DNA of 64,000 nt from a virus (lineage: Duplodnaviria > Caudoviricetes): the IMG/VR virus record IMGVR_UViG_3300031992_000031, positions 1 through 64,000 of that record. The stretch is one strand, 5' to 3'. The notes under the pieces were generated by a model. It ran no database searches and was not told where the DNA came from. It worked only from the letters and a program-made list of their open reading frames with translations. A program made the translations under genes and the position numbers. This document shows positions 4,433 through 52,498 of this stretch, piece after piece. Every line of letters begins with the position of its first letter. Within the stretch, counting starts at the first letter, position 1.

Positions 4433-4798
4433 ATGAGTTACGAACCAACAAATTGGAAGGCTGGTGACACTGTAACCAGCGCGAAACTTAATAAAATTGA
4501 ATAGGGAATCGCCGCAGGTGGCGGGATTCTAATTGCGCATCGCACAGATAGTGAAGAAACTTCTACTTTAGATAAGACTTGGCAAGAAATACATGATGCG
4601 GATGTTTGTTATATTATTTAGCGTGATGATGAATACTCTGACTGCCGTTTAGTTAGGGGAACAGATATTGACAATGGCGAATATATAGTGAGCGTTATTA
4701 ACTTTTAGCAACCTCCTCAAATTTTTGTTGCCGCTTCTTCTAGCGATTATCCTGCCTTGGATGCAAGTCCCATTATTGATCCCGGTACTACGCTATAA
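4433..4798 (+). CDS. Phage structural protein; TAG=Gln
   Basis: MSYEPTNWKAGDTVTSAKLNKIE(TAG)GI, a common phage N-terminal motif ending EQGI. Confidence 0.75.
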
Positions 4799-6893: not shown

Positions 6894-7301
6894 ATGACAC
6901 TATTGGAATTAGCACAAAAACTTCGTCCTTATATTGAAAAGGCGGCCATCTCATTATCAGATGAGGACGCGCTTGAAGCGATAAATCTATTTCCGCATTG
7001 GAAAACTGGAATAGCATATGCCAAAGATACGCGCGTTACCTACAATAACATTTTATATTCCTGCTTACAGGCTCACACTTCATAGGAAAGTTGGACTCCC
7101 GAAACCGCGCCCAGTTTATGGGCAAAAGTACTAATTCCAGACCCAAATGTCATACCTGAATGGGAACAACCGGATAGTACGAATCCTTATATGAAGGGTG
7201 ATAAGGTTATGTTTAATGGGGCTGTATATGAAAGCACTATTGATAATAATGTTTGGGCGCCAGATGTTTATCCAGGTGGATGGCAAATACTTGACAATTA
7301 A
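6894..7301 (+). CDS. Carbohydrate-binding (CBM5/12-like) protein; TAG=Gln
   Basis: CLQAHTS(TAG)ESWTP...WEQPDSTNPYMKGDKV...NNVWAP motifs. Confidence 0.8.
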
Positions 7302-7320
7302 TAATTTAATATGATATAAT
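7291..7320 (+). promoter_or_regulatory. Sigma-A promoter
   Basis: TTGACA-18-TATAAT with TG extension. Confidence 0.6.
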
Positions 7321-7372
7321 ATAAATATCGTACAGGGTCGCTGCTTTGCGCCGATGGTTGTACGATAACAGT

Positions 7373-7406
7373 AAGGGGTGGCTGGTATAGCACCCCTTAT
7401 TTTTTT
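7373..7406 (+). terminator. Intrinsic terminator
   Basis: AAGGGGTG...CACCCCTT then T run. Confidence 0.75.
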
Positions 7407-7495
7407 ATACTATGTAGAAAAAATAATAATAGAAGTTAATTCCTCTTAATACTCTATAATGGAATTAAATTATTATTTTAAATGGAGGTGATATA

Positions 7496-8665
7496 ATGGC
7501 TACTGGAAGTAATTTCATGACCTCTGATGCTTCTCGAATTAGTTATGCTTTATAGGGAACAGTCGCAGCGTCAAACGTCGTGTCTGTTATGGATACAGGA
7601 CAAATAGATTGGCTTTATAATGTTTCATCGCCAGGGTTCTAGTATACCACATAGACAAATAACGGAATTCTTACATTAAATACAGGTAGTAGTTAGTATC
7701 ACCAATTAGGTTTTAGTTCAAATGGTAATATATATCACTAGACAGCTAATCAAACCACTAGTAGCGGCTGGAAAGCTCTTGTAATAGAAACGGGAACAAA
7801 TAATATAGATTCGCAAAGTGGGGTAGATCAAGATAGAACTTGGATGATACAAGTAGATGAGGCATATAGAGATGCTGACCATAATATAATTAGTGATACT
7901 TATTTAAAACTAAGTGGCGGTGTTATGACTGGACCGCTCACTATTAATACATTATTTGCGCAAAATAATGTTAGTTATGGCACCACTTTACCACTAACTC
8001 CTACTGAGGGGCAAGTTTTCTTTTAGATTAGTGACCCTTGGTATGAATTACCACCAGGAGGCGCCGCAGGATAGGCGCTAGTTAAACGCACAGCAAACGA
8101 TAGAGATGTAGAATGGGGCGCTGTTGGTGGCATTATGCGCCCAAATGCGACATCAAAATATTATGTTACTGGATCTTAGTATACTACAGAAAATACTGAC
8201 CCAGCAATTTTTAATACATAGATATATGTAGAAAATAGTGTACTAATGGGCGCGGCTTGGAATGACTATGCTGAATATCGTAAATGTAGTGAAAAGGTCG
8301 AACCTGGGCGCTGTATAGTAGAAAATGGCGATGGTTCATTATCACTTTCAACTAAACGGCTTCAATAGGGCGCAGAGATAATATCTGATACATTTGGTTT
8401 TGCTATTGGTAAAACAAACGAAAGTAATGTACCTATCGCAGTTAGCGGGCGGGTGCTTGCTTATATGAATGAAGATTTAAAAGATATAAAAATTGGCGCA
8501 CCAGTATGTTCTGGGCCAAATGGAACGGTTAGTCAAATGACAAAACATGAAGCACGAAAATATCCTTGGCTTATTATTGGAACTATTTCTTCTATTCCAC
8601 AGGAAGAAGAATGGGGTCAAAATAAAATCAAAGTAAATAATCGTGTTTGGATACGGGTGAGATAA
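7496..8665 (+). CDS. Tail fibre protein with C-terminal autoproteolytic chaperone (peptidase G2-like) domain; TAG=Gln
   Basis: ORFs 7844 and 8453 in one frame; WNDYAEYR...SDTFGFAIG...IAVSGRV motifs. Confidence 0.7.
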
Positions 8666-22666: not shown

Positions 22667-22981
22667 ATGATTAAATTAATATTAAACGATACTCAAGAAT
22701 TTGAAATTATAAGTTATTCTAGAACGGTATATTTACGTGATAATGACTTAACCGCTAAAAATACTGGTTATTGTGTTGTTTTATCAGAATTAGAACCATT
22801 GATGGAATTTGTAAATGTAACTATTACATCTTTTAAAATTTATCATGATGAAGAACTAATATATGATATATCTGATACAGAAATTTATATTAGCACAATT
22901 ACCGAATAGTTAAATAATAATAAAATTGAAGTAAGTGTAGGATTTTTATTTCCTGAATATTTGACTTCGGATGAAAATTGA
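22667..22981 (+). CDS. Hypothetical protein; TAG=Gln
   Basis: ORF 22658 extended through TAG to TGA. Confidence 0.55.
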
Positions 22982-22989
22982 GATATAAT
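22961..22989 (+). promoter_or_regulatory. Sigma-A promoter upstream of the suppressor tRNA/YcaO region
   Basis: TTGACT-17-TATAAT. Confidence 0.65.
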
Positions 22990-23059
22990 ATAAGTAGAAA
23001 ATGAGAGTAAGGAATCTCATTTCTAAATAAAATTTCATAACATAAGGAGGTTATGAGGT

Positions 23060-23401: not shown

Positions 23402-23444
23402 GTAAAATGGCTTAGGGACTGAGCCTATCAGTCCTTCTTTATAT

Positions 23445-23532
23445 AGCCCCGCGGTCCGTGGCGGACAGACGGTCTCTAAAACCGTGGCCTCTGAAGCAAA
23501 CGAAGTAGGTTCGATTCCTACCGGGGCTGCCA
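23445..23532 (+). tRNA. Amber suppressor tRNA, anticodon CUA (probably Gln)
   Basis: AGCCCCG/CGGGGCT acceptor + G-CCA; ACGGT-CTCTAAA-ACCGT anticodon arm; GTAGG-TTCGATT-CCTAC T arm. Confidence 0.85.
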
Positions 23533-23556: not shown

Positions 23557-25326
23557 ATGGCCGATTTATCGACGCATTATAAAGAACGAACACCAGAACA
23601 AACTATTGAAATTATTTAGCAATTTTTTAAAGATAAAGGTTTTATATTAAAAGAATCTGATATTAATTAGACCGAAGCTGGTACTTGGTATAATCATGTT
23701 GATATTTTTTAGGGAGACGTATTAATTGGCGGTGCTAATGGAAAAGGCGTTAGTAGAGAGTATGCTCGTGCCAGCGGCCACGCTGAACTATATGAACGCT
23801 TTTGTAATAATATGTTCTTTTTAGCAAACCCATATTGGAATAAAACATTTATGGACGCCGTAGAAGATAGAGGCTATTATTTTGATAAAAATGAAAAATT
23901 TTTAACTGAAGATGAACTCTATCATAGCTGTAAACACGCTGAAAAATGGTTGTCCTTCTTTTCGGGTAATAATCCTTTATTATTATCAACAATGTTAAAA
24001 TATATTACGAATGGAAAAGGTATAGGAGTGCCAGCGAAAACTCTAGATGGAGAAATTGGATTGTATATTGATCCGCGTCTACTGATTAGACTTACACATT
24101 CAATTGGAATGTCAGCTGGTAATACAGTAAATGAAGCACTCGTGTAGGGTTTATCTGAATTAGTTGAAAAAGAAGCATTTAATCAATTCTTACAAAATAT
24201 GGGCGGTTCATATACAGCTATTAATATTGACAAAATTACTGATCCAGTATTAAGACCAATTATTGATAATATTCAAAAAATAGGTTATAAACTTTATTTA
24301 ATTGATTTGTCTTGTAATTTTAATGTACCTACTTTAATGTCAATTTTAATTGATGAGAATAAAGGACTTTTAAATATTAACTTTGGTTCTTTTCCAGTAT
24401 TTGAAATCGCCGCGGAGCGAGTCTTAACTGAACTTTATTAGGGAATTAAAAGTTATAAAAGTGCTTTCCATTTAGGCAAAGTATAGAAGCCAAATAAAAT
24501 TGTAGAAAATAGAGAATTATATATTATTTATGGAAATAGTATTGATGGTACTGTATTTAACTATGATTTCTTCAAGAATCTAAAATATAGTGATACGTAT
24601 AATCATGATGTATTTGTAGATAGAAAAGTTTCTAATGAAGAACTAGTTAAATATTATCATAATTTAGAATAGAAATTAAATATTAAATTTTACTATCTTG
24701 ATAATTCTCAATCACCAGATATTAAAGCAATATACTCTTTTATAGACGGAGATAATGTATTTAATAATACTGAGGGATATTATGAAATGAAGAATCCCAT
24801 TGATATGGAAAAAGCGCGCAGATCTCTAATTCGTTTAATGGAATTATAGGATAATATTTATAATAAGACAGAAGTTGATTACGCCGCTTTATCAGATTTA
24901 GTTTTAAATGAATTTAATACATCTGAAGAGGTTTCTAATTGTATAGGTGAAACTGCGGTATGGAATAAAGTTCATATTAATATTATAGCTATTATGAATT
25001 ATGATTTTTTACGTGTTTTATTTGATATAACAAAACAACAATATACTAATATTGAAATCCCATTTTTATATGGCACGATATTTTTAGTTCCTTATCGTAA
25101 ATACATTCAGCTTATTTATTATAAGGTAACACAAAAATATGATGATGATGAATTATACTATATTTTTAATGATATTTATCATTATAATATAACTCATGAA
25201 GATATTTATAAATGTCTTTCTTTTTCGTATCTACTAAAAAAGGTTTATGTAGAACCATTAATGAATTATATTAATAGTGAGGATTATAATAATATAATAA
25301 AAGCCTATATAAATTCCTCAGATTAA
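23557..25326 (+). CDS. YcaO-family protein (589 aa); TAG=Gln
   Basis: ORFs 23812, 24199 and 24994 in one frame; NGKGVSREYARASGHAELYER and GMSAGNTVNEALV(Q)GLSELVEK are YcaO ATP-binding signatures. Confidence 0.85.
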
Positions 25327-25347
25327 TATTAATGAGGAGATGATTAT

Positions 25348-26676
25348 ATGGCAATTGGCACCGGAGAAAAAATATTATATTCTGATTTAGCATCAAAGTA
25401 TAATAGTTTTAATTCTTTTATTGCTACATATGGAGGCGAAATTACTACCTTAGTATTGCCCTAGACTGGCTAGCCCGCACACGCGTCTGATATTAATAAT
25501 TTGAATGATAAAATTGAAGAATTTCAATTTGATACTTTTTTAAGTACTCAACCAACTTGGTGGGTAAGTGGTTCAGTTACTATTGGTGAATTGATTGCGG
25601 CATCAAACATGGACAATATAAATACTACTATAAGTAATTTTAGTAGAGTGCAATGCCGTAATGCTGATGCTAGACATTCTTATTCTACTAATAGTAATGC
25701 CTGTAATCCTTAGACATGTAGTACAGAAGCATGTTCGCATCAATGCACTGGATAGTCTTGTAGTCGTCAATGTAGTATAACATGTAGTCATACATGTACT
25801 GCTCAGGCATGTAGTCGTTAGTGTTCTATTACATGCAGTAATAAATGTACGGCTTAGGCTTGCGGTCGGACTTGTAGTATTACCTGCAGTCACAAATGCA
25901 CGGCTTAGGCGTGTGGTAGAACTTGTAGTATAACATGTAGTAATAAATGTACCGCTCAAGCTTGTGGTAGAACCTGTAGTATTACTTGTAGTAATAAATG
26001 TACTGCTTAGGCTTGCAGTAGAACCTGTAGTAGAACATGTAGTAATACATGTGCAGCTTAGGGTGTATGCAATAAAAACTGCAGTTAGGCTTGTGGCCAT
26101 GTTACTAATGGATCATGGAAATGTAATTCTTATGGCTCATATCGTGGCTATCAAAATTGTCCTAATGGAGCAAGAACTAATACATGTGGTGCATAGGCTT
26201 GCTCTCATGGAAGCAACTCTGTTGCTTGTAACAATTCTTCTCATTCATAGAGTGGGCATACACATGGCACAAATAGTAATGCTTGCAACAATTCTTCTCA
26301 TTCATAGGGTGGACATACACATGGTACAAATAGTAATGCGTGTAATAATTCGTCTCATTCATAGGGCGGACATACACACGGAACTAATAGTAATGCTTGC
26401 AACAATTCTTCTCATTCATAGGGCGGGCATACCCACGGAACTAACAGTAATTCCTGTAATAATTCTTCCCATACTCAAGGTGGGCATACTCATGGGACAA
26501 ATAATAATGCTTGTAATAATTCGTCTCATACCTAGGGCGGGCATACTCATGGAACAAATAATAATGCTTGTACATATAGTTCTCATAATAATACTAACTG
26601 TGCTCATAGTACGCACGGATAGACCTGTAAACATTAGACCTATATTGATATAAGTAATGCACATACTAATCTTTGA
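25348..26676 (+). CDS. Cys/His-rich repeat protein (442 aa), putative substrate of YcaO/radical SAM enzymes; TAG=Gln
   Basis: GAGGAG RBS; single frame with TAG alternating with CAG/CAA in repeat copies. Confidence 0.85.
25771..26060 (+). repeat. 51-nt tandem coding repeat (CSITCSNKCTAQACGRT, about 5-6 copies)
   Basis: Repeated TGTAGTATAACATGTAGT...TGTACTGCT(C/T)AGGC units. Confidence 0.85.
26227..26570 (+). repeat. 57-nt tandem coding repeat (CNNSSHSQGGHTHGTNSNA, about 6 copies)
   Basis: Repeated TGTAA(C/T)AATTC.TCTCATTCATAGGG.GG.CATAC.CA.GG.AC units. Confidence 0.85.
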
Positions 26677-26688
26677 GGTAAATTGAAT

Positions 26689-28050
26689 ATGATAAATTTT
26701 AATAGTCAACGTTCCACCGCCGTTGTTTATAGTTGCGGTGTTTGTAATCTAAATTGTAGATATTGTACAATTGATAAAAATCCTGTATTAAAAGATATAG
26801 ATAATGAATTAGAAGAAAGTTTTAAGGGTGATTATTATTTTAATCGTATTAAAGAATACTTTCCACGTTATGATCAATTACATAGATTAGAAACTTGGGG
26901 AGGCGAACCTTTTTTACGTATGGACCGTGTTTATCCACTAGTACATAAATTAATTGAGCATTATCCTTATTTTAATGAAATGTTTTCTTCTACTAATTTT
27001 TCATATGATTCTTGGTTAGATCAATTTATGGGACTAATGAGAGTATTTGAACAATACCCATACAGAGAATTTAAATATGAATTACAGCTTTCAGTGGATG
27101 GCCCTCCTTATATTAATGATACTAATAGAGGTGCGGGCGTAACTGAAAGATGTATTAAAAATTTTGATAAGTTGATTAATATTATCAAAGAAGGAAAATT
27201 CCCTAAAAACGTAGTTTTAGATATGTATATAAAGGGAACATGGGATATTGAAGCAATTCATCGTTTAAATGATAAAGGAAAATTAATTGAATTTTTTCAA
27301 TTTTATGAACAGACATATTTATTAAAAGCAAGTGAATTAAATAAACCTAATATCATTGTCGGATGCGGAATTCCCAATGTAGCTATTCCATCACCAGTAA
27401 CAAAGCATGATGGAGAAGTATTTGCGGAATTAGTAAAAAAATGTAGAGAAATAGAAGAAGAAAATCTCACGCACCATTATTTTAAATTGTATGATCGTAT
27501 TACGCCATTTACTGGAAAATTCTGTAGTAATTATGGTGCTATGTGTGATGATTGCTTTGGCTGCGGATCGGGAGGCTGCATGGTAGGATTTTTACCTAAT
27601 AATATGGTATCAGCTTGTCATGAAGGATTTACTTTGCTTGTAGATAACTATAAAAAATTTGCAATGAAACGCTCTGATGAAAATCTTAGTGTTAATTTAA
27701 ATAAATTTTTTGAATTAAATACAACTCCGATGTGTTTGACTGATGAAGGGTACGTTGAACACGAAAGGAAAATGGATTTTATCAGCAATTCGTCTCCTGT
27801 TCAAGTCGCTAACACTGTTTTACTCATTATGACTCTAGCTATGAGCGGATTAGTGGATCAAAAGTATATTAATGAAGGTATGGCTTTATTCGCGGCAAAA
27901 ACAATATTAGTTAATTCATCATATTGTATTAAAGCTAATTATGCAATGACCGGTTCATTTATTCTAGAGCCTACTGATACTTATATTTTATTACTTAATG
28001 GAGCATTAGAATATATAAATGGAGGAGAAGATAATGAGTGTACTTGCTGA
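26689..28050 (+). CDS. Radical SAM enzyme with Cys-rich (SPASM/twitch-like) C-terminal region
   Basis: CNLNCRYC motif; WGGEP; LSVDGP; CGSGG...SACH. Confidence 0.9.
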   Translation: MINFNSQRSTAVVYSCGVCNLNCRYCTIDKNPVLKDIDNELEESFKGDYYFNRIKEYFPRYDQLHRLETWGGEPFLRMDRVYPLVHKLIEHYPYFNEMFSSTNFSYDSWLDQFMGLMRVFEQYPYREFKYELQLSVDGPPYINDTNRGAGVTERCIKNFDKLINIIKEGKFPKNVVLDMYIKGTWDIEAIHRLNDKGKLIEFFQFYEQTYLLKASELNKPNIIVGCGIPNVAIPSPVTKHDGEVFAELVKKCREIEEENLTHHYFKLYDRITPFTGKFCSNYGAMCDDCFGCGSGGCMVGFLPNNMVSACHEGFTLLVDNYKKFAMKRSDENLSVNLNKFFELNTTPMCLTDEGYVEHERKMDFISNSSPVQVANTVLLIMTLAMSGLVDQKYINEGMALFAAKTILVNSSYCIKANYAMTGSFILEPTDTYILLLNGALEYINGGEDNECTC

Positions 28051-29446
28051 AAATAAAATTCAATATCAAAAAGAGCAAGATCAGATACTAAAAACAATAT
28101 TGGATTATCGTTTTTTTAAACCGTGGAATAATATTGAGCAAATGGTTAATGACGCCGCGCTAAGAAACGATTCTAATTTAGAATTATTTATAAGCGGAAC
28201 CTGTAATCAACATTGTGATTATTGTTATTTATATAAGCATAAGGGCTTATATCCTCCTGAGTGTGATAACCCAGAACAGATTTTAAAAAATTTAAAAATA
28301 TTATATGACTATATTTTAGTTAATGATTATAATATTCCTGTTATTGATATATTTTCTGGCGAGATCTGGCATACTCAATTTGGTCTTGACATTTTACAAA
28401 TTACATTAGATTATATAAAAAAGGGAATGAAAGTAGAACAAATTTTAACTACCACTAATGGATATTTCCTTTCTAATGATATTAGTTTCCAAAAAATTCA
28501 ATCTTATATTAATCAATTTAATAATATAGGTTGCCCATTAGTATTTTCACTATCTATTGATGGTAAAATACTTGATAATGAATTTCGCGCTCGAAATAAT
28601 GGAATTGAATATGATGATAATTTTTATGATCATGTATTTAGTTTTTGTCGAGAAAATAATTTTCTATTTCATCCTATGGTATCTTCTAAAAACGTATTTA
28701 AATGGAAAGAAAATTATGAGTGGTGGAAAAAACAACTTAATTATTATAATTTTGATTTTAGTGCTATTATGACATTAGAAGTCCGCGATGCTGATTGGAC
28801 TGCAGAATCTATTAAAGCTTATTGTGAATTTAATAATTATCTAATTGATGACTTTATTAAAAATTATTGTCATAATAGTATTGAAACATTTGCTAAGGCA
28901 ATTACTGGAGTCCGTAAAACAAATGAAGTCCCCGATGTTGGAGGCTATCATCCTTGGACAATTGGGCCGGTTGACTCTTTTTTAGGATGTACCGTTTCAA
29001 ATCATTTAACTGTTCGAGTAGGAGATTTAGCAATTTGTCCATGTCATCGTACAGCATATAAAGAATATCTTTATGGATATTTTGTGGTTGAAAACGATCA
29101 AATCGTAGATATTAAATCTGAAAATCCATTAATGGCTATGAAAATTTTGATGGGGAATTTAAAATCAACAACTCCATTATGTACATATTGCATTTATAAT
29201 GATATATGCTTACATGGATGCTTAGGCAGTCAATTAGAAACTATGCATGATCCATTTTTCCCAATTGATAATGTCTGTAAATTATTTAGAGCGAAATATC
29301 ATAATTTGTTAAAATATTATAGACAATTAGGAGTAATTGATTATTTAAAACAAATTCCTATATCAGAAATAGATAATGAGCAAGCAAAGTTTATTGTAAA
29401 TATTGATAAATTAGACAGAGAGGTGTATCCAGACGATGTGGAATAA
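28034..29446 (+). CDS. Radical SAM/SPASM peptide maturase
   Basis: CNQHCDYC motif; SLSIDG; C...GDLAICPCHR...CTYC...CLHGCLG...C auxiliary cysteines. Confidence 0.9.
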   Translation: MSVLAENKIQYQKEQDQILKTILDYRFFKPWNNIEQMVNDAALRNDSNLELFISGTCNQHCDYCYLYKHKGLYPPECDNPEQILKNLKILYDYILVNDYNIPVIDIFSGEIWHTQFGLDILQITLDYIKKGMKVEQILTTTNGYFLSNDISFQKIQSYINQFNNIGCPLVFSLSIDGKILDNEFRARNNGIEYDDNFYDHVFSFCRENNFLFHPMVSSKNVFKWKENYEWWKKQLNYYNFDFSAIMTLEVRDADWTAESIKAYCEFNNYLIDDFIKNYCHNSIETFAKAITGVRKTNEVPDVGGYHPWTIGPVDSFLGCTVSNHLTVRVGDLAICPCHRTAYKEYLYGYFVVENDQIVDIKSENPLMAMKILMGNLKSTTPLCTYCIYNDICLHGCLGSQLETMHDPFFPIDNVCKLFRAKYHNLLKYYRQLGVIDYLKQIPISEIDNEQAKFIVNIDKLDREVYPDDVE

Positions 29447-29744
29447 TGCAAATGAAATTTTTCCTACGGGTTTTTCACCAGATATAAATGGAATAATTTA
29501 TAGTAATGATAGACTACCTGAAAGTGGTATAGAATTTATTAGGTGTGTAAAACCGAAATTCGCGCGTAAAATGCTCATTCAAGAAAACTCTCAAATTTGG
29601 GGATCTGAAGGATAGTACGCTGAAGCAATAGACTATAATATATATTCACAAACTTTCCATCCAGATGATAAATGGCTTCCGTTAAGTGTTTATGGGCAAT
29701 CAATGATTAATAATTATTTATATTTCCATGACATGGATGCTTAA
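29436..29744 (+). CDS. Hypothetical protein ending the operon; TAG=Gln
   Basis: GAGG RBS; overlaps radical SAM stop; one TAG. Confidence 0.55.
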
Positions 29745-31543: not shown

Positions 31544-31668
31544 TAGACACATACAGCAAACCTTTTTCTAATGATGATTGAGGATCCGTGTGTTACAAGT
31601 TCGAACCTTGTCTAGCGCATCGCGCTAGTAGCTCAATTGGTAGAGCGACGTACTATTGAATGTGTCTA
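31544..31668 (+). ncRNA. Y RNA (YrlA)-like RNA: CAGCAA stem enclosing a circularly permuted tRNA domain
   Basis: TAGACACA...TGTGTCTA stem; T arm precedes closed acceptor hairpin CTAGCGC-ATC-GCGCTAG and D arm. Confidence 0.65.
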
Positions 31669-32091: not shown

Positions 32092-33786
32092 GTGAGAGCA
32101 GCAGCTTATAGTGGTACCCGTAATATTTATTAGCAAATGCTAACCGCCGCAAAATCTCTATTAATGCATTCAAATGTTGAAAAAATATATTTTTTAATTG
32201 AAGATGATGAATTTCCCTATGAAATTCCACCAGAAATTGAATGTATAAATATAAGCAATTAGACATATTTTCCCGCAGATGGACCAAATTTTAAAAACGT
32301 ATTAACATATATGGTGCTTATTCGCGCGGCTTATACAAAAATATTTCCAGATTTAGATAGAATATTAAGTATAGATATGGATACCGTGATAAATGAAAAT
32401 ATATCTGATTTATGGGATTTAGATTTAACTAATTATTATATCGCAGCAGTAGAAGAAGCGGAATTAACAAAATCAGAAGGTTCATATTTTAATATGGGCG
32501 TTGCTATGATGAATTTACAGAAAATACGCGCCGATAAAAAAGATGATGAAATAATTAATGCTTTAAATACCTATTGGTATAGGTATAAAGAATAGGATTG
32601 TTTTAATGAATTTTTTCGAGGTCATGCTTTAATTCTTCCAAGTGATTATAATTGTTGTTATTAGGCTAACCCGCCCAAGCATGAAAAAATTACACATTTT
32701 GCTGGCTTGTATAAATTAGAACAATTCCCTCATTTTAATTATTATAAAAATTTAACGAATGATTTTCCTCGTAATGTAACGGATAATATTACACTTGATA
32801 TAATTATTCCTACTTATAAGAATAAAAAAGGATTAAGACGGACACTTAAATCAATTCCTTCTAATCCAAATGTTAATGTTATTGTAATAGATGATTGTTC
32901 TAATTTAGAATATGATGATATATTAAAAGAATATCCTTCATTAATATTCTATTAGCTAGAAAAAAATAGTGGCCCAGGAATGGCCCGTCAATATGGACTA
33001 GACCATAGTAATGGAACTTATATTACGTTTTTAGACACTGGAGATTATTTTTATGAAGATGGCCTTGACACCATCATGCGGGCTATAAATGAAAATACTT
33101 ATATTAAATTATATACTTTTTCTTATGTATATGATGATAAGAATATTTTAAGCGACCAACCAGATGATAAAACGATTGGTTCTGTTTATAAACGTTCATT
33201 TATTGAAATGTATAATATTCATTTTAATAAAAAAGGCTCATATGCGAATGAAGATTATGGCTTCAGCCGTGCTTGTAATTTAATATTAGATGATTGGTAG
33301 AGATATTTCTTTTCAGACGCGCGAAAACATATAAAAATACCAGTATTTTATGAGCATATTGATAAAAATTCATTAACAAAGGCTAATAATGATGAATTCT
33401 TTTATACACAACTTAGTCCTGGAATTATTATCAATGGTGTACATGCCATTAAAATAGCTGAAAAAGCAAAAGTAAAAACTGAATATTTATTAGAAGAATA
33501 TAATTATATTATGGCACAAGAATATTTTTTCTTCTTGTGTAATTTGTATGAGCGTCCAGAATTAGTTGATGATACATGGCAAACTATTCGTGATTTTTAT
33601 TTTAATCATTATCGTATTTATAGTAAATTCGCAATAAGAGATTTGCCGCAAAGATATGCTCAAGTCACTTTACCTAAAATTCATTCTCGTATGAAAAAAT
33701 GGGATAGAATGGCTCGTCCAAATATCATACGATTTATAAACGAATTAGAAACAGAATTATTTACTCCATCATATTATTTTCAATGA
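32092..33786 (+). CDS. Glycosyltransferase GT8-GT2 fusion; TAG=Gln
   Basis: ORFs 32311, 32707, 32980 and 33511 in one frame; SIDMD..YFNMGV (GT8) then IIIPTY...VIDDCS...GPGMARQYGL...FLD (GT2). Confidence 0.8.
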
Positions 33787-43774: not shown

Positions 43775-44551
43775 TTGAATTATACATATGTTACTTTATT
43801 AAGTTCTGTTGATTATTTACCAGGCATATTAGCATTAAATGATAATTTAAAAAATATAGGATGCAAATATCCATTACATATAATGGTTACAAATAATGTT
43901 ATTGTCCACATTAGTAAATATCTTATTAAAGAGAAAATTCCTTTTACTATTGTTCCAAAGATTACCTACTCCCCAGAGACAATTGCAGCAATGAATAATG
44001 CAAGATTAGAAACAATCGCATCAAAAATTAATGTATTTAGACTGGAAGAATTAGAAAAAGTAGTATATTTAGATACTGATAGTTATTTTATTAAACCAAT
44101 AGATGAACTATTTAATTATCCAGATGGAGCACTCTATGATTGTGGAGAACCACGGGGATTTTGTGGACTATTTACATGTATCCCTAGAATGCATCCTTTA
44201 GATTATTATATTTCACTATTAAAGCATAATCATATGTGGGAAAGCGATTTAATTGAAGAATTATGGTTTCCTTTTAAATCTAATCCCGACTATCGTATTC
44301 CGTATTCATATTTTGTAAATACTAAAGTTCAGGATTTTAATACACTTTTACCTATTGAAGAAAAGGTACATGGATTTCATTTTTGTGGTGAATTAAAACC
44401 GTGGAAATTTAAAAATCCCTATGATTATATTACGGCATTTCATAAAGAATGGCCTTTTCCTAATGAAAATAGGAACAAAATAATTAAAGATTATTATTAT
44501 CAATATATACAACCAATTAAAGATAAATATCCTGAGATTTTTACATATTAA
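43775..44551 (+). CDS. Glycosyltransferase family 8 (glycogenin-like)
   Basis: YVTLL...YLPG...KVVYLDTD...IDELF...HFCGELKPW. Confidence 0.8.
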   Translation: MNYTYVTLLSSVDYLPGILALNDNLKNIGCKYPLHIMVTNNVIVHISKYLIKEKIPFTIVPKITYSPETIAAMNNARLETIASKINVFRLEELEKVVYLDTDSYFIKPIDELFNYPDGALYDCGEPRGFCGLFTCIPRMHPLDYYISLLKHNHMWESDLIEELWFPFKSNPDYRIPYSYFVNTKVQDFNTLLPIEEKVHGFHFCGELKPWKFKNPYDYITAFHKEWPFPNENRNKIIKDYYYQYIQPIKDKYPEIFTY

Positions 44552-45496: not shown

Positions 45497-46114
45497 ATGT
45501 TAAATATTCTTAGTGTAGATATGGATTGGATTATGGAACCAAGTATTAATTTTTATAATAATCAAGTTTCTGATTAGAATGATTTTTTAGCTGAAAATGA
45601 TGAAAGAATTATTATACCTGCCGATTTAAAAAAATATGCCATGATTACTAAATTAATTTTTTCTTTATTGTCATCTTTACAATTAAAAGATATATTTATA
45701 GCAGAGGGGCATGAAGAAATATTTAAAGCTATTAATAAATGGCAGCTAAATGATAAGTTTAAAATTTATAATATAGATCATCATCATGATTGCGGTTATT
45801 TATATGATAATATATCATTACATAATCTAATTAATGAATGTACTTGCGCTAATTGGGTTCCATATGTTTATAAAAAATTTTCAACATTTGTAAAATACAT
45901 ATGGATTGGAAATAAAAATTCATTCCCATTAGATTCACAACTTAAATCCATTCTTCCAGATTACAATATTTATGATAATCTTGAAATATTAGATAATATA
46001 AAAATAGATAAAATTTTTATTTGCAAATCTCGTACTTGGATCCCAGTTGAATATCGTGAATTAATTGATAGTTTTACATATTCTATTATAAAAGCATTGG
46101 AAATGAGAAAGTAA
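45497..46114 (+). CDS. UPF0489-like (arginase/deacetylase-fold) protein; TAG=Gln
   Basis: MLNILSVDMDW...H..I...NIDHHHD...CANW; GGAGG RBS; one TAG. Confidence 0.6.
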
Positions 46115-51640: not shown

Positions 51641-52498
51641 ATGATAAAATTATCTTTACCTGGCTTTTATGTACATTTTAAATTCGTTAAAATGTTTCTC
51701 GTATTTTATAATGAACATCCAGAATACTTTTATAAAGATAGAATAATTGATAGTTTTTATGATGCCGATCCTAATGTTTTATGGCGTGGAGGCAGGACTC
51801 CTCGTATAAATGAATATATATCTATGGATGAAATTCTAAATGAATTTAATCAATATCCTAATATTAAACTACGTCATACATTTACGAATTGTATGTTAAC
51901 AGAACAGTTAATAAATGATTATTTTTGTAATTCCTTTGTGGAAAACTTCATTCGTCCTCAAGACGAAGTTATTTTAAATAATCCATTATTAATTAAACAT
52001 TTTAAAACTAATTATCCTCAAATTCCAATTATTTATAGTACTACTTTAGGAATCACTGATATCTCGCGTATAAATGAAATAACTGAAAAAAATATTTATG
52101 TTCTCAATTATAATTATAATAATGATAATAAATATATTCAACAATTAAAAAATAAAAAGAATGTAGAAATTTTATGTGCTGAACCGTGCGTAATAAATTG
52201 CCCTTATCGTTATAAACACTATCAATTAATTAGTGAAGATGTATTATCTTTACGGCCAACTGAAGATTATAATTGTCCTTTTAATATGGAATCTAAACCA
52301 TTTATTGATATTATGAGTTTACCTCATGCAATTACTAATAATCGTTTAAAAGAATTAGAACAGCGTGGTTTTCAATATTTTAAAATATCCGGTAGAACTA
52401 ACCCAATCCCAAGATGGCTAGAAACTTTAGTATATTATTTAATATTACCAGAATATAAAGAGTATGTTCGTCAACTCTTATTAGATGACTGGTGGTGA
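51641..52498 (+). CDS. Peptidase U32-like Fe-S protein
   Basis: EPC..NC..R..HY...C and GFQYFKISGR. Confidence 0.55.
   Translation: MIKLSLPGFYVHFKFVKMFLVFYNEHPEYFYKDRIIDSFYDADPNVLWRGGRTPRINEYISMDEILNEFNQYPNIKLRHTFTNCMLTEQLINDYFCNSFVENFIRPQDEVILNNPLLIKHFKTNYPQIPIIYSTTLGITDISRINEITEKNIYVLNYNYNNDNKYIQQLKNKKNVEILCAEPCVINCPYRYKHYQLISEDVLSLRPTEDYNCPFNMESKPFIDIMSLPHAITNNRLKELEQRGFQYFKISGRTNPIPRWLETLVYYLILPEYKEYVRQLLLDDWW

Follow-up and report, generated by a model that had tools for sequence, protein, structure and literature searches.

Introduction

Chemistry of the kind found in peptides that are made on the ribosome and modified after translation (RiPPs) is known to reach whole proteins in a handful of cases (QHNDH, MCR, uL16, HxsA and CrpA), none of them viral in the searchable literature. 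The system considered here is a five-gene cassette in the DNA of a rumen-type phage, from IMG/VR virus record IMGVR_UViG_3300031992_000031, which has 133,461 bases (an estimated 75% of the genome) and of which the first 64 kb is here called the window; the nearest relatives of this phage are uncultured metagenomic phages. The cassette encodes a YcaO enzyme, a 442-residue repeat protein, two radical S-adenosylmethionine (SAM) enzymes and the product of a small open reading frame (ORF), and we conclude that it is a genuine phage system for protein modification, which is conserved and had not been described. In the best reading, whose chances we consider evenly balanced, these RiPP-type enzymes modify a late protein of the phage itself that is probably displayed on the virion. 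A literature search, whose coverage largely left out subscription journals, found no paper describing a phage protein-modification cassette with YcaO and radical SAM enzymes.

Comparison with described systems

In the archaeon Methanococcus voltae, the large Cys-repeat protein CrpA and the radical SAM enzyme CrpC, with a SPASM domain containing seven Cys, yield a modified product with ranthionine cross-links (PMC13692751). The phage cassette likewise places a large Cys-repeat protein beside a seven-Cys SPASM enzyme, and shares with Crp the 17-residue repeat and the C-x-x-Q motif, which occurs 13 times in the window protein; in CrpA, the cross-links that were mapped lie in motifs other than C-x-x-Q (PMC13692751). 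However, Crp resides on an archaeal chromosome and uses one enzyme bearing a RiPP recognition element (RRE) and no YcaO, whereas the window encodes two RRE-less enzymes. In addition, Cys is optional in the phage family, and the TIGR04463 model reaches only 21 bits against a cut-off of 525.

The second parallel is HXS, a bacterial anti-phage system (HxsA-D, TIGR03976-03979) with a periplasm-exported protein that carries His-x-Ser (HxS) repeats and undergoes a +8 Da change (PMC13128918). In HXS, a repeat protein that retains a folded domain is matured by two radical SAM enzymes together with a small protein, and the same arrangement presumably operates in the window. Unlike HXS, the cassette is phage-borne, its repeat protein has no signal peptide and only two HxS motifs, the HxsB model scores 17 bits against 370, and the HxsA4 model matches only one of 70 homologues. 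The cassette appears to work like Crp and to be organized like HXS, while scoring as a member of neither.

The same holds for the CXXX-repeat system (target TIGR04114, enzyme TIGR04115, and PF27846), which resembles the cassette in having C-x3-C repeats beside a radical SAM enzyme and to which the original prediction had likened it. This kinship was not borne out, as TIGR04114 scores 9.3 bits against a cut-off of 20, TIGR04115 gives no match, and the phage family has a period of five residues and dispensable Cys. A homologue of the window protein has PF27846-bearing clusters, which are partly viral, among its weak feature neighbours (score 0.85, 19-23% of members); Atlas comparisons were made with database homologue P0013 in place of the window protein itself.

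Ranthipeptide enzymes (PapB for freyrasin, CteB for SCIFF) and the QhpD/QhpC system share the seven-Cys SPASM domain with the second radical SAM enzyme of the window, and known enzymes of this group link Cys to side-chain carbons. These systems, in contrast to the window, lack paired enzymes, and the PapB model, although the best NCBIfam match of the second enzyme (E 9e-10), reaches 38 bits against a cut-off of 340. PapB and CteB also act in systems with short precursors in which an RRE is present.

For YcaO, the nearest characterized relative is the E. coli enzyme (PDB 4q84), which has an isoelectric point (pI) of 4.4 and thioamidates folded uL16 without TfuA (PMC13063428). Both are acidic stand-alone proteins of about 590 residues without RRE or TfuA, the E. 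coli enzyme recognizing a folded protein. The window enzyme, with a pI of 5.1, differs in that a phage encodes it as part of a repeat-protein cassette; identity is about 30% and covers the N-terminal half, and it scores 105 bits to NF040716, the model for E. coli-type equivalogs, against a cut-off of 700.

Genetic code and gene content

In the window phage, TAG encodes Gln. Within the repeat units of the 442-residue protein, TAG, CAG and CAA interchange at one position, and in an alignment of eight YcaO homologues TAG faces CAA or CAG in invariant Gln columns; together these rule out a residue other than Gln. Coding density over the 133-kb sequence is 0.90 with table 15 compared to 0.52 with table 11, and a public collection lists homologues as 'with_TAG=Q'.

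The five genes lie on the plus strand and follow one another with gaps of +21, +12, -17 and -11 nt: YcaO (23557..25326; 589 residues, eight in-frame TAG), the repeat protein (25348..26676; TAG at 18 of 27 Gln codons), radical SAM enzyme 1 (26689..28050; 453 residues, no TAG), radical SAM/SPASM enzyme 2 (28034..29446; 470 residues, no TAG) and the small ORF (29436..29744; 102 residues, one TAG). The original prediction had already read TAG as Gln over this span, and all five genes are indeed present at these positions. It had left out, however, an amber suppressor tRNA with a CUA anticodon and a long extra arm (23445..23532, plus strand), the 3' end of which lies 24 nt upstream of the YcaO start. 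Its claim that standard gene calling misses YcaO and the substrate applies to code 11, under which the longest open pieces are 158 and 79 residues, respectively, and the substrate gene is hidden; code-aware callers, in contrast, do find such genes. The difference in TAG use between the substrate and the radical SAM genes is significant in the window (p 3e-8). A conserved split of codes between substrate and radical SAM genes was nevertheless rejected, as radical SAM genes carry TAG in L001, L010, L013, L033 and L053 (L numbers denote loci throughout).

Conservation of the cassette

Scans of viral contigs gave no matches with single-sequence queries, whereas profile scans recovered the radical SAM pair in more than 30 loci, nearly always beside one to three repeat proteins. 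The phages concerned range from rumen and gut phages with codes 15 and 4 to code-11 phages; relatives of enzyme 1 are absent from 50,697 GenBank phages, and GTDB genomes give one weak match. The full order of YcaO, target, the two radical SAM enzymes and small ORF recurs in L001, L004, L006, L010/L011, L012, L013 and L055, and the same YcaO-first order is seen, as far as the contigs extend, in L005, L007, L050, L057 and L065. The synteny anticipated in related phages is therefore present. Since the succession of target, enzyme 1, enzyme 2 and small ORF holds in more than 30 loci, and the small ORF is kept at the same position in the near clade whether YcaO is present or absent, the core of the cassette consists of the target, the radical SAM pair and the small ORF.

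This kept gene order argues, in line with the original prediction, that the radical SAM pair very probably modifies the repeat protein. One could suppose instead that the genes are merely neighbours, with the repeat protein being an unmodified fibre stabilized by disulfides or metal and the enzymes acting elsewhere; His-x-His (HxH) motifs and Cys ladders could indeed provide stability without enzymes, and the 17-residue repeats model as a beta-roll. We regard this as extremely unlikely, because a target almost invariably adjoins the pair, also where the cassette has changed its place, and L023 and L053 have duplicated targets on either side or near it.

YcaO, which had been proposed as a core member, is not one. 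Nine cassette-bearing records have no YcaO, either near the cassette or elsewhere, and four of these are at least 90% complete. Where it occurs, YcaO takes one of four positions: immediately upstream in the clade of the window, upstream but separated by one intervening gene in L043, right behind the small ORF in L062-L064 and L069, and, as a duplicated gene, 2-5 kb downstream in L037 and L071. These arrangements sit on separate branches of a FastTree phylogeny of enzyme 2, and a YcaO tree, built as a quick tree only, gives similar groups. In genomes of 130-190 kb, we infer that such repeated adjacency is best explained by a common substrate, and YcaO thus appears, from gene neighbourhoods, to be an accessory but coupled tailoring enzyme that probably acts on the same repeat protein.

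Architecture of the repeat protein

The window protein contains 45 Cys and 30 His. Alignments and a structural model delimit a head domain of three helices (residues 1-105; 25348..25662, plus strand as for all segments below) that ends with an invariant Cys-Arg-Asn and is modelled with a predicted local distance difference test score (pLDDT) of 77-93 over residues 11-100, and above 90 in a homologue. The head is followed by an outbound arm of five 17-residue units with the pattern C-x3-C-x3-C-x4-C (residues 142-226; 25771..26025), flanked by degenerate units. This arm is modelled as a beta-roll (pLDDT about 71-86) that matches an RTX-like beta-roll with Z 12.6 and a root-mean-square deviation of 1.9 over 104 aligned residues; a model of this type did not fit the actual cross-links of the Crp protein, which calls for caution here (PMC13692751). 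A central non-repetitive segment (26095..26187) with Trp257, Tyr262, Tyr265 and Tyr268 places an aromatic cluster at the midpoint of the tail, residue 268, and may form a variable tip. The return arm comprises six 19-residue units (residues 294-407; 26227..26568), every unit carrying a single Cys and an HxH motif, and has no confident model (pLDDT <40). At the end, a conserved strand with an Ile-Asp-Ile motif and invariant Asp434 and Ile435 (26626..26658) is predicted to pair with a strand just after the head. The two sets of repeats thus agree with those claimed once TAG is read as Gln.

A profile search with the head retrieved 214 clusters at 50% identity; 81 complete members of the family were analysed, the tail being defined as the stretch between an invariant Cys-x-Asn and the C-terminal Ile-Asp-Ile. 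Tails span 53-327 residues, the window protein being the longest. Asn and Ser each account for 16% of the residues, Thr and Gly for 12% each, Cys for 8% and His for 5%, and the autocorrelation peaks at lags of 5, 10, 15 and 20. Cys content ranges from 0 to 15%, with two or fewer Cys in 15 of the 81 tails, so that Cys appears, judging from composition, not to be the universal target of the enzymes; in distant phages, the same enzymes stand beside Asp-rich, nearly Cys-free targets. The emphasis that the original prediction had laid on Cys and His therefore describes a lineage-specific version of an Asn/Ser/Gly/Thr repeat family that is Asp-rich elsewhere.

Aromatic residues are concentrated in the middle of the tails, 77% of Trp and Phe falling within the central 40% as compared to 40 +/- 3% in shuffled sequences, and the lengths of the two arms correlate (rho 0.51; null maximum 0.16). 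L053 (8094-14068) carries three target paralogues around one radical SAM pair, with near-identical arms and different centres, and no YcaO within 10 kb. AlphaFold, run for a homologue on a 70-sequence alignment, assigned only two strands (106-111 and 178-184), with an unmodelled loop between them; as no other strand was assigned, the two are read as pairing with each other in the model. Altogether, the family looks like a stalk-and-knob appendage rather than a leader-core peptide: a folded head of about 105 residues, period-5 arms running out and back, a hypervariable aromatic tip and a C-terminal clasp strand. The best VIA fold match of the head has Z 6.2, giving no evidence for a new fold, and a resemblance of the head to the structural gene at 4433 was unsupported by hhalign.

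The radical SAM pair and the small ORF

The two closely spaced enzymes both carry CxxxCxxC and precede the small ORF, as had been described, whereas their matches to radical SAM models are weak: both hit many RiPP-maturase models, each under the family cut-off. Enzyme 1, matched by NF033640 (E 2.4e-9, under cut-off), has three auxiliary Cys that are invariant over 44 homologues and twitch-like, whereas all seven SPASM Cys of enzyme 2 are invariant in 34 of 34 homologues; the nearest Atlas clusters of enzyme 2 are mostly viral and without assigned names. Neither enzyme has space for an N-terminal RRE, and PqqD has no match in the available genome sequence. The small ORF gives no Pfam, NCBIfam or PHROG hit; it has 10 distinct homologues (phmmer E 1e-7 to 1e-19) and is possibly a partner of the radical SAM pair. 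SPASM and twitch enzymes that stand beside repeat proteins abstract hydrogen from the peptide.

The YcaO enzyme

The 589-residue protein restored by reading through TAG passes the YcaO check that had been proposed for it, matching PF02624 with E 5.8e-36 (125 bits; cut-off 25.7) and TIGR00702 with 107 bits (cut-off 76). E. coli YcaO is the best structural match (4q84, E 3e-31), and in alignment with it all three ATP/Mg-binding motifs are intact, with one Arg-to-Lys change that is common to L004, L007 and L010.

Of the chemistries first suggested for YcaO, cyclodehydration of repeat Cys, Ser and Thr to azolines (-18 Da each) as in azole-containing RiPPs is the least supported and, in our view, very unlikely. 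The tail does offer substrate, with Cys, Ser and Thr making up 42% of its residues, and targets beside YcaO are somewhat richer in Cys (mean 9% vs 5%; p about 0.02, for related sequences and with nine classes tested). Moreover, ThiF/E1-like genes, candidates for a sulfur relay or a cyclodehydratase partner, stand beside distant phage YcaO homologues in L042 (2176-2832, between two YcaOs) and L044 (6728-7459). However, the window genome, as far as available, has no ThiF/E1-like gene or RRE, the C-terminus of YcaO has no Pro and hence no Pro-x-Pro, TIGR03604 scores 47 bits against 219, and L043 pairs YcaO with a Cys-free tail. Since TfuA (PF07812) also finds no match in the available sequence, and the nearest characterized enzyme thioamidates its folded substrate without this partner, a thioamide or amidine is, by analogy, the more likely product.

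The same analogy allows YcaO to have a different substrate altogether, such as host uL16, with the modification serving recoded translation together with the suppressor tRNA and the radical SAM pair alone modifying the repeat protein. The acidity of the window enzyme (pI 5.1) would suit this proposal, as would the CUA tRNA directly 5' of YcaO in five loci (the window, L001, L005, L012 and L013) and the absence of a clear motif difference between targets with and without YcaO, which no residue class cleanly splits. Nevertheless, YcaO tracks the cassette rather than the tRNA: no CUA tRNA lies beside YcaO in L037, L043, L062-L064 or L071, and none was found directly 5' of it in L004, L007, L010 or L055. 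Many recoded cassette phages lack YcaO, its homologues reach pI 8.8, and the similarity to the E. coli enzyme is confined to the N-terminal half, rendering a host substrate improbable. The CUA tRNA itself is likely co-transcribed with the cassette and no fixed member of it.

Expression timing and virion location

In phages of this kind, codon reassignment is a hallmark of genes for late structural proteins and lysis (10.1101/2021.08.26.457843). The TAG share of Gln codons in the target is as high as in tail-module genes (mostly 0.3-0.8), compared to 0-5% in most replication genes, and among 25 loci scored, 24 have TAG in the target gene, including cases where the enzyme genes have none. The window cassette is positioned after tail-fibre, holin and SH3 genes; tape-measure or tail genes lie no more than about 2-4 kb upstream of it in L022, L028 and L032, and in L027 a target-like gene carries a LamG domain. 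On this basis, a virion location of the repeat protein is somewhat favoured. Outside the window (G000, 109712-125902), a 5,396-residue ORF has 176 TAG and no Cys, and lies near capsid-like and major-tail-like genes without TAG.

Several observations weigh against a modified virion protein. The cassette stands outside structural modules in L017, L053, L062-L064 and L071, and TAG is a loose marker of structural genes, being absent from the capsid-like and major-tail-like genes and present in some non-structural ones. The head resembles no known virion protein in sequence or fold: PDB sequences give no match, nor does BFVD at E <0.1, and PHROG and Pfam give no hit. The heads of distant Asp-rich targets match that of the window weakly (hhalign probability 22%, E 0.001). 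With regard to the chemistry, Cys is dispensable in the family, and the Cys pattern of the enzymes is unchanged beside Asp-rich, nearly Cys-free targets. The congruent trees may stem from shared genome descent.

The location outside structural modules in several phages would also fit a product that is not part of the virion, made from the same substrate by the same enzymes: an HXS-like protein or a leader-plus-core RiPP that is released at lysis or targets rival phages or bacteria from within the cell. The gene logic resembles that of HXS, with two radical SAM enzymes, a small protein and a repeat protein that includes a folded domain (PMC13128918), and L053 holds multiple variant precursors. 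The conserved N-terminal part of about 105 residues also fits the size of long RiPP leaders. Such an effector is nonetheless rather unlikely. The window protein has no signal peptide, hydrophobic N-terminus or other hydrophobic segment and only the two HxS motifs; there is no RRE and no protease or transporter next to the cassette, although a host protease might act on the protein; TAG gating implies late expression; and the C-terminal strand is modelled as folding back on the head, which argues against leader removal. The conserved folded head and the lack of adjacent export or processing genes agree with the initial proposal that the product is a modified protein and not a secreted peptide.

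Proposed mechanism

If the repeat protein is indeed a modified virion component, TAG would be read as Gln late in infection, yielding a 442-residue chain with a folded head, two low-complexity arms running out and back, a variable aromatic tip and a C-terminal clasp. The radical SAM pair and the small ORF would bind this protein without an RRE, probably via the head, and abstract hydrogen from side-chain carbons in the repeats. A seven-Cys SPASM domain leaves an iron site open to which a thiol of the substrate can bind, an argument made for CrpC (PMC13692751). In the Cys-rich window member, Cys thioether cross-links (-2 Da each) would be the most likely outcome, and we treat such staples as a serious candidate at somewhat less than even confidence; otherwise, Cys-independent links or epimerization at Asn, Asp, His or Tyr may be formed. 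Cys-poor relatives would employ another acceptor. YcaO, where present, would use ATP to activate backbone amides of the repeat protein, giving thioamides or amidines rather than azolines. The product would stay whole and form a stiff appendage of the virion that resists proteases and touches the surface of host or gut with its tip. Taken together, this picture of anaerobe-infecting phages with a virion stalk stapled by the radical SAM pair, with a backbone rewritten by YcaO to thioamide or amidine, a hypervariable host-recognition tip and recoding-gated expression, is advanced only tentatively.

Neighbouring genes and related loci

Upstream of the suppressor tRNA lie a near-consensus sigma70 promoter (22961-22989), a cow-rumen-4 RNA motif (22994-23056, E 1e-12) and, just 5' of the tRNA, a 113-residue ORF and a terminator-like hairpin (23414-23436); read-through of this terminator from the promoter could feed the cassette. 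A second loop of 7 nt in the extra arm of the tRNA has the sequence of a Gln anticodon loop. In an unbiased scan, 68 distinct long-arm CUA hits were obtained, in which a closed loop carries CUG in 43 and UUG in six, with variable closing stems. Downstream of the cassette, YrlA (Y RNA-like) has a weak match at 31587-31653 (E 5.6e-6, under the gathering score).

Two loci depart from the common arrangement. In L046 (9983-13783), YcaO faces, in convergent orientation, another kind of Cys-rich target (247 residues) and another radical SAM enzyme; this locus represents a second cassette type with the same YcaO family. In the code-11 phage L030, a His-x-Ser-rich protein (7089-7829) and four or five radical SAM genes surround the pair, linking the window-type system to Hxs-type targets.

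Genes for U32-like Fe-S proteins come after the cassette in L033 (13036-14827), L037 (13032-14809) and L043 (16324-17226); the window encodes one at 51641-52498 (PF01136), 22 kb from the cassette. They possibly serve further tailoring (hydroxylation) or tRNA modification. A protein of about 205 residues with a similar N-terminal pattern and no Pfam hit occurs in the window (45497-46114), L043 (17223-17906) and L071 (17391-18002), and adjoins U32 and YcaO genes in the relatives. Lastly, the window contains a GT8-GT2 fusion (32092-33786, six TAG) and a GT8-like glycosyltransferase (43775-44551), with similar genes near the cassette in L004, L013, L017, L033 and L071; these possibly glycosylate virion proteins.

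Concluding remarks

If the proposed reading is true, RiPP-type chemistry reaches virus particles, and no virion protein before this repeat protein would have had a backbone altered by such chemistry. The radical SAM pair, which would be independent of Cys, may carry out an undescribed reaction on Asn/Asp repeats, and enzymes with such tolerance, for tails of 50-330 residues and very different sequence, would be useful for protein stapling. For gut phages, the family would represent a new receptor-binding architecture.

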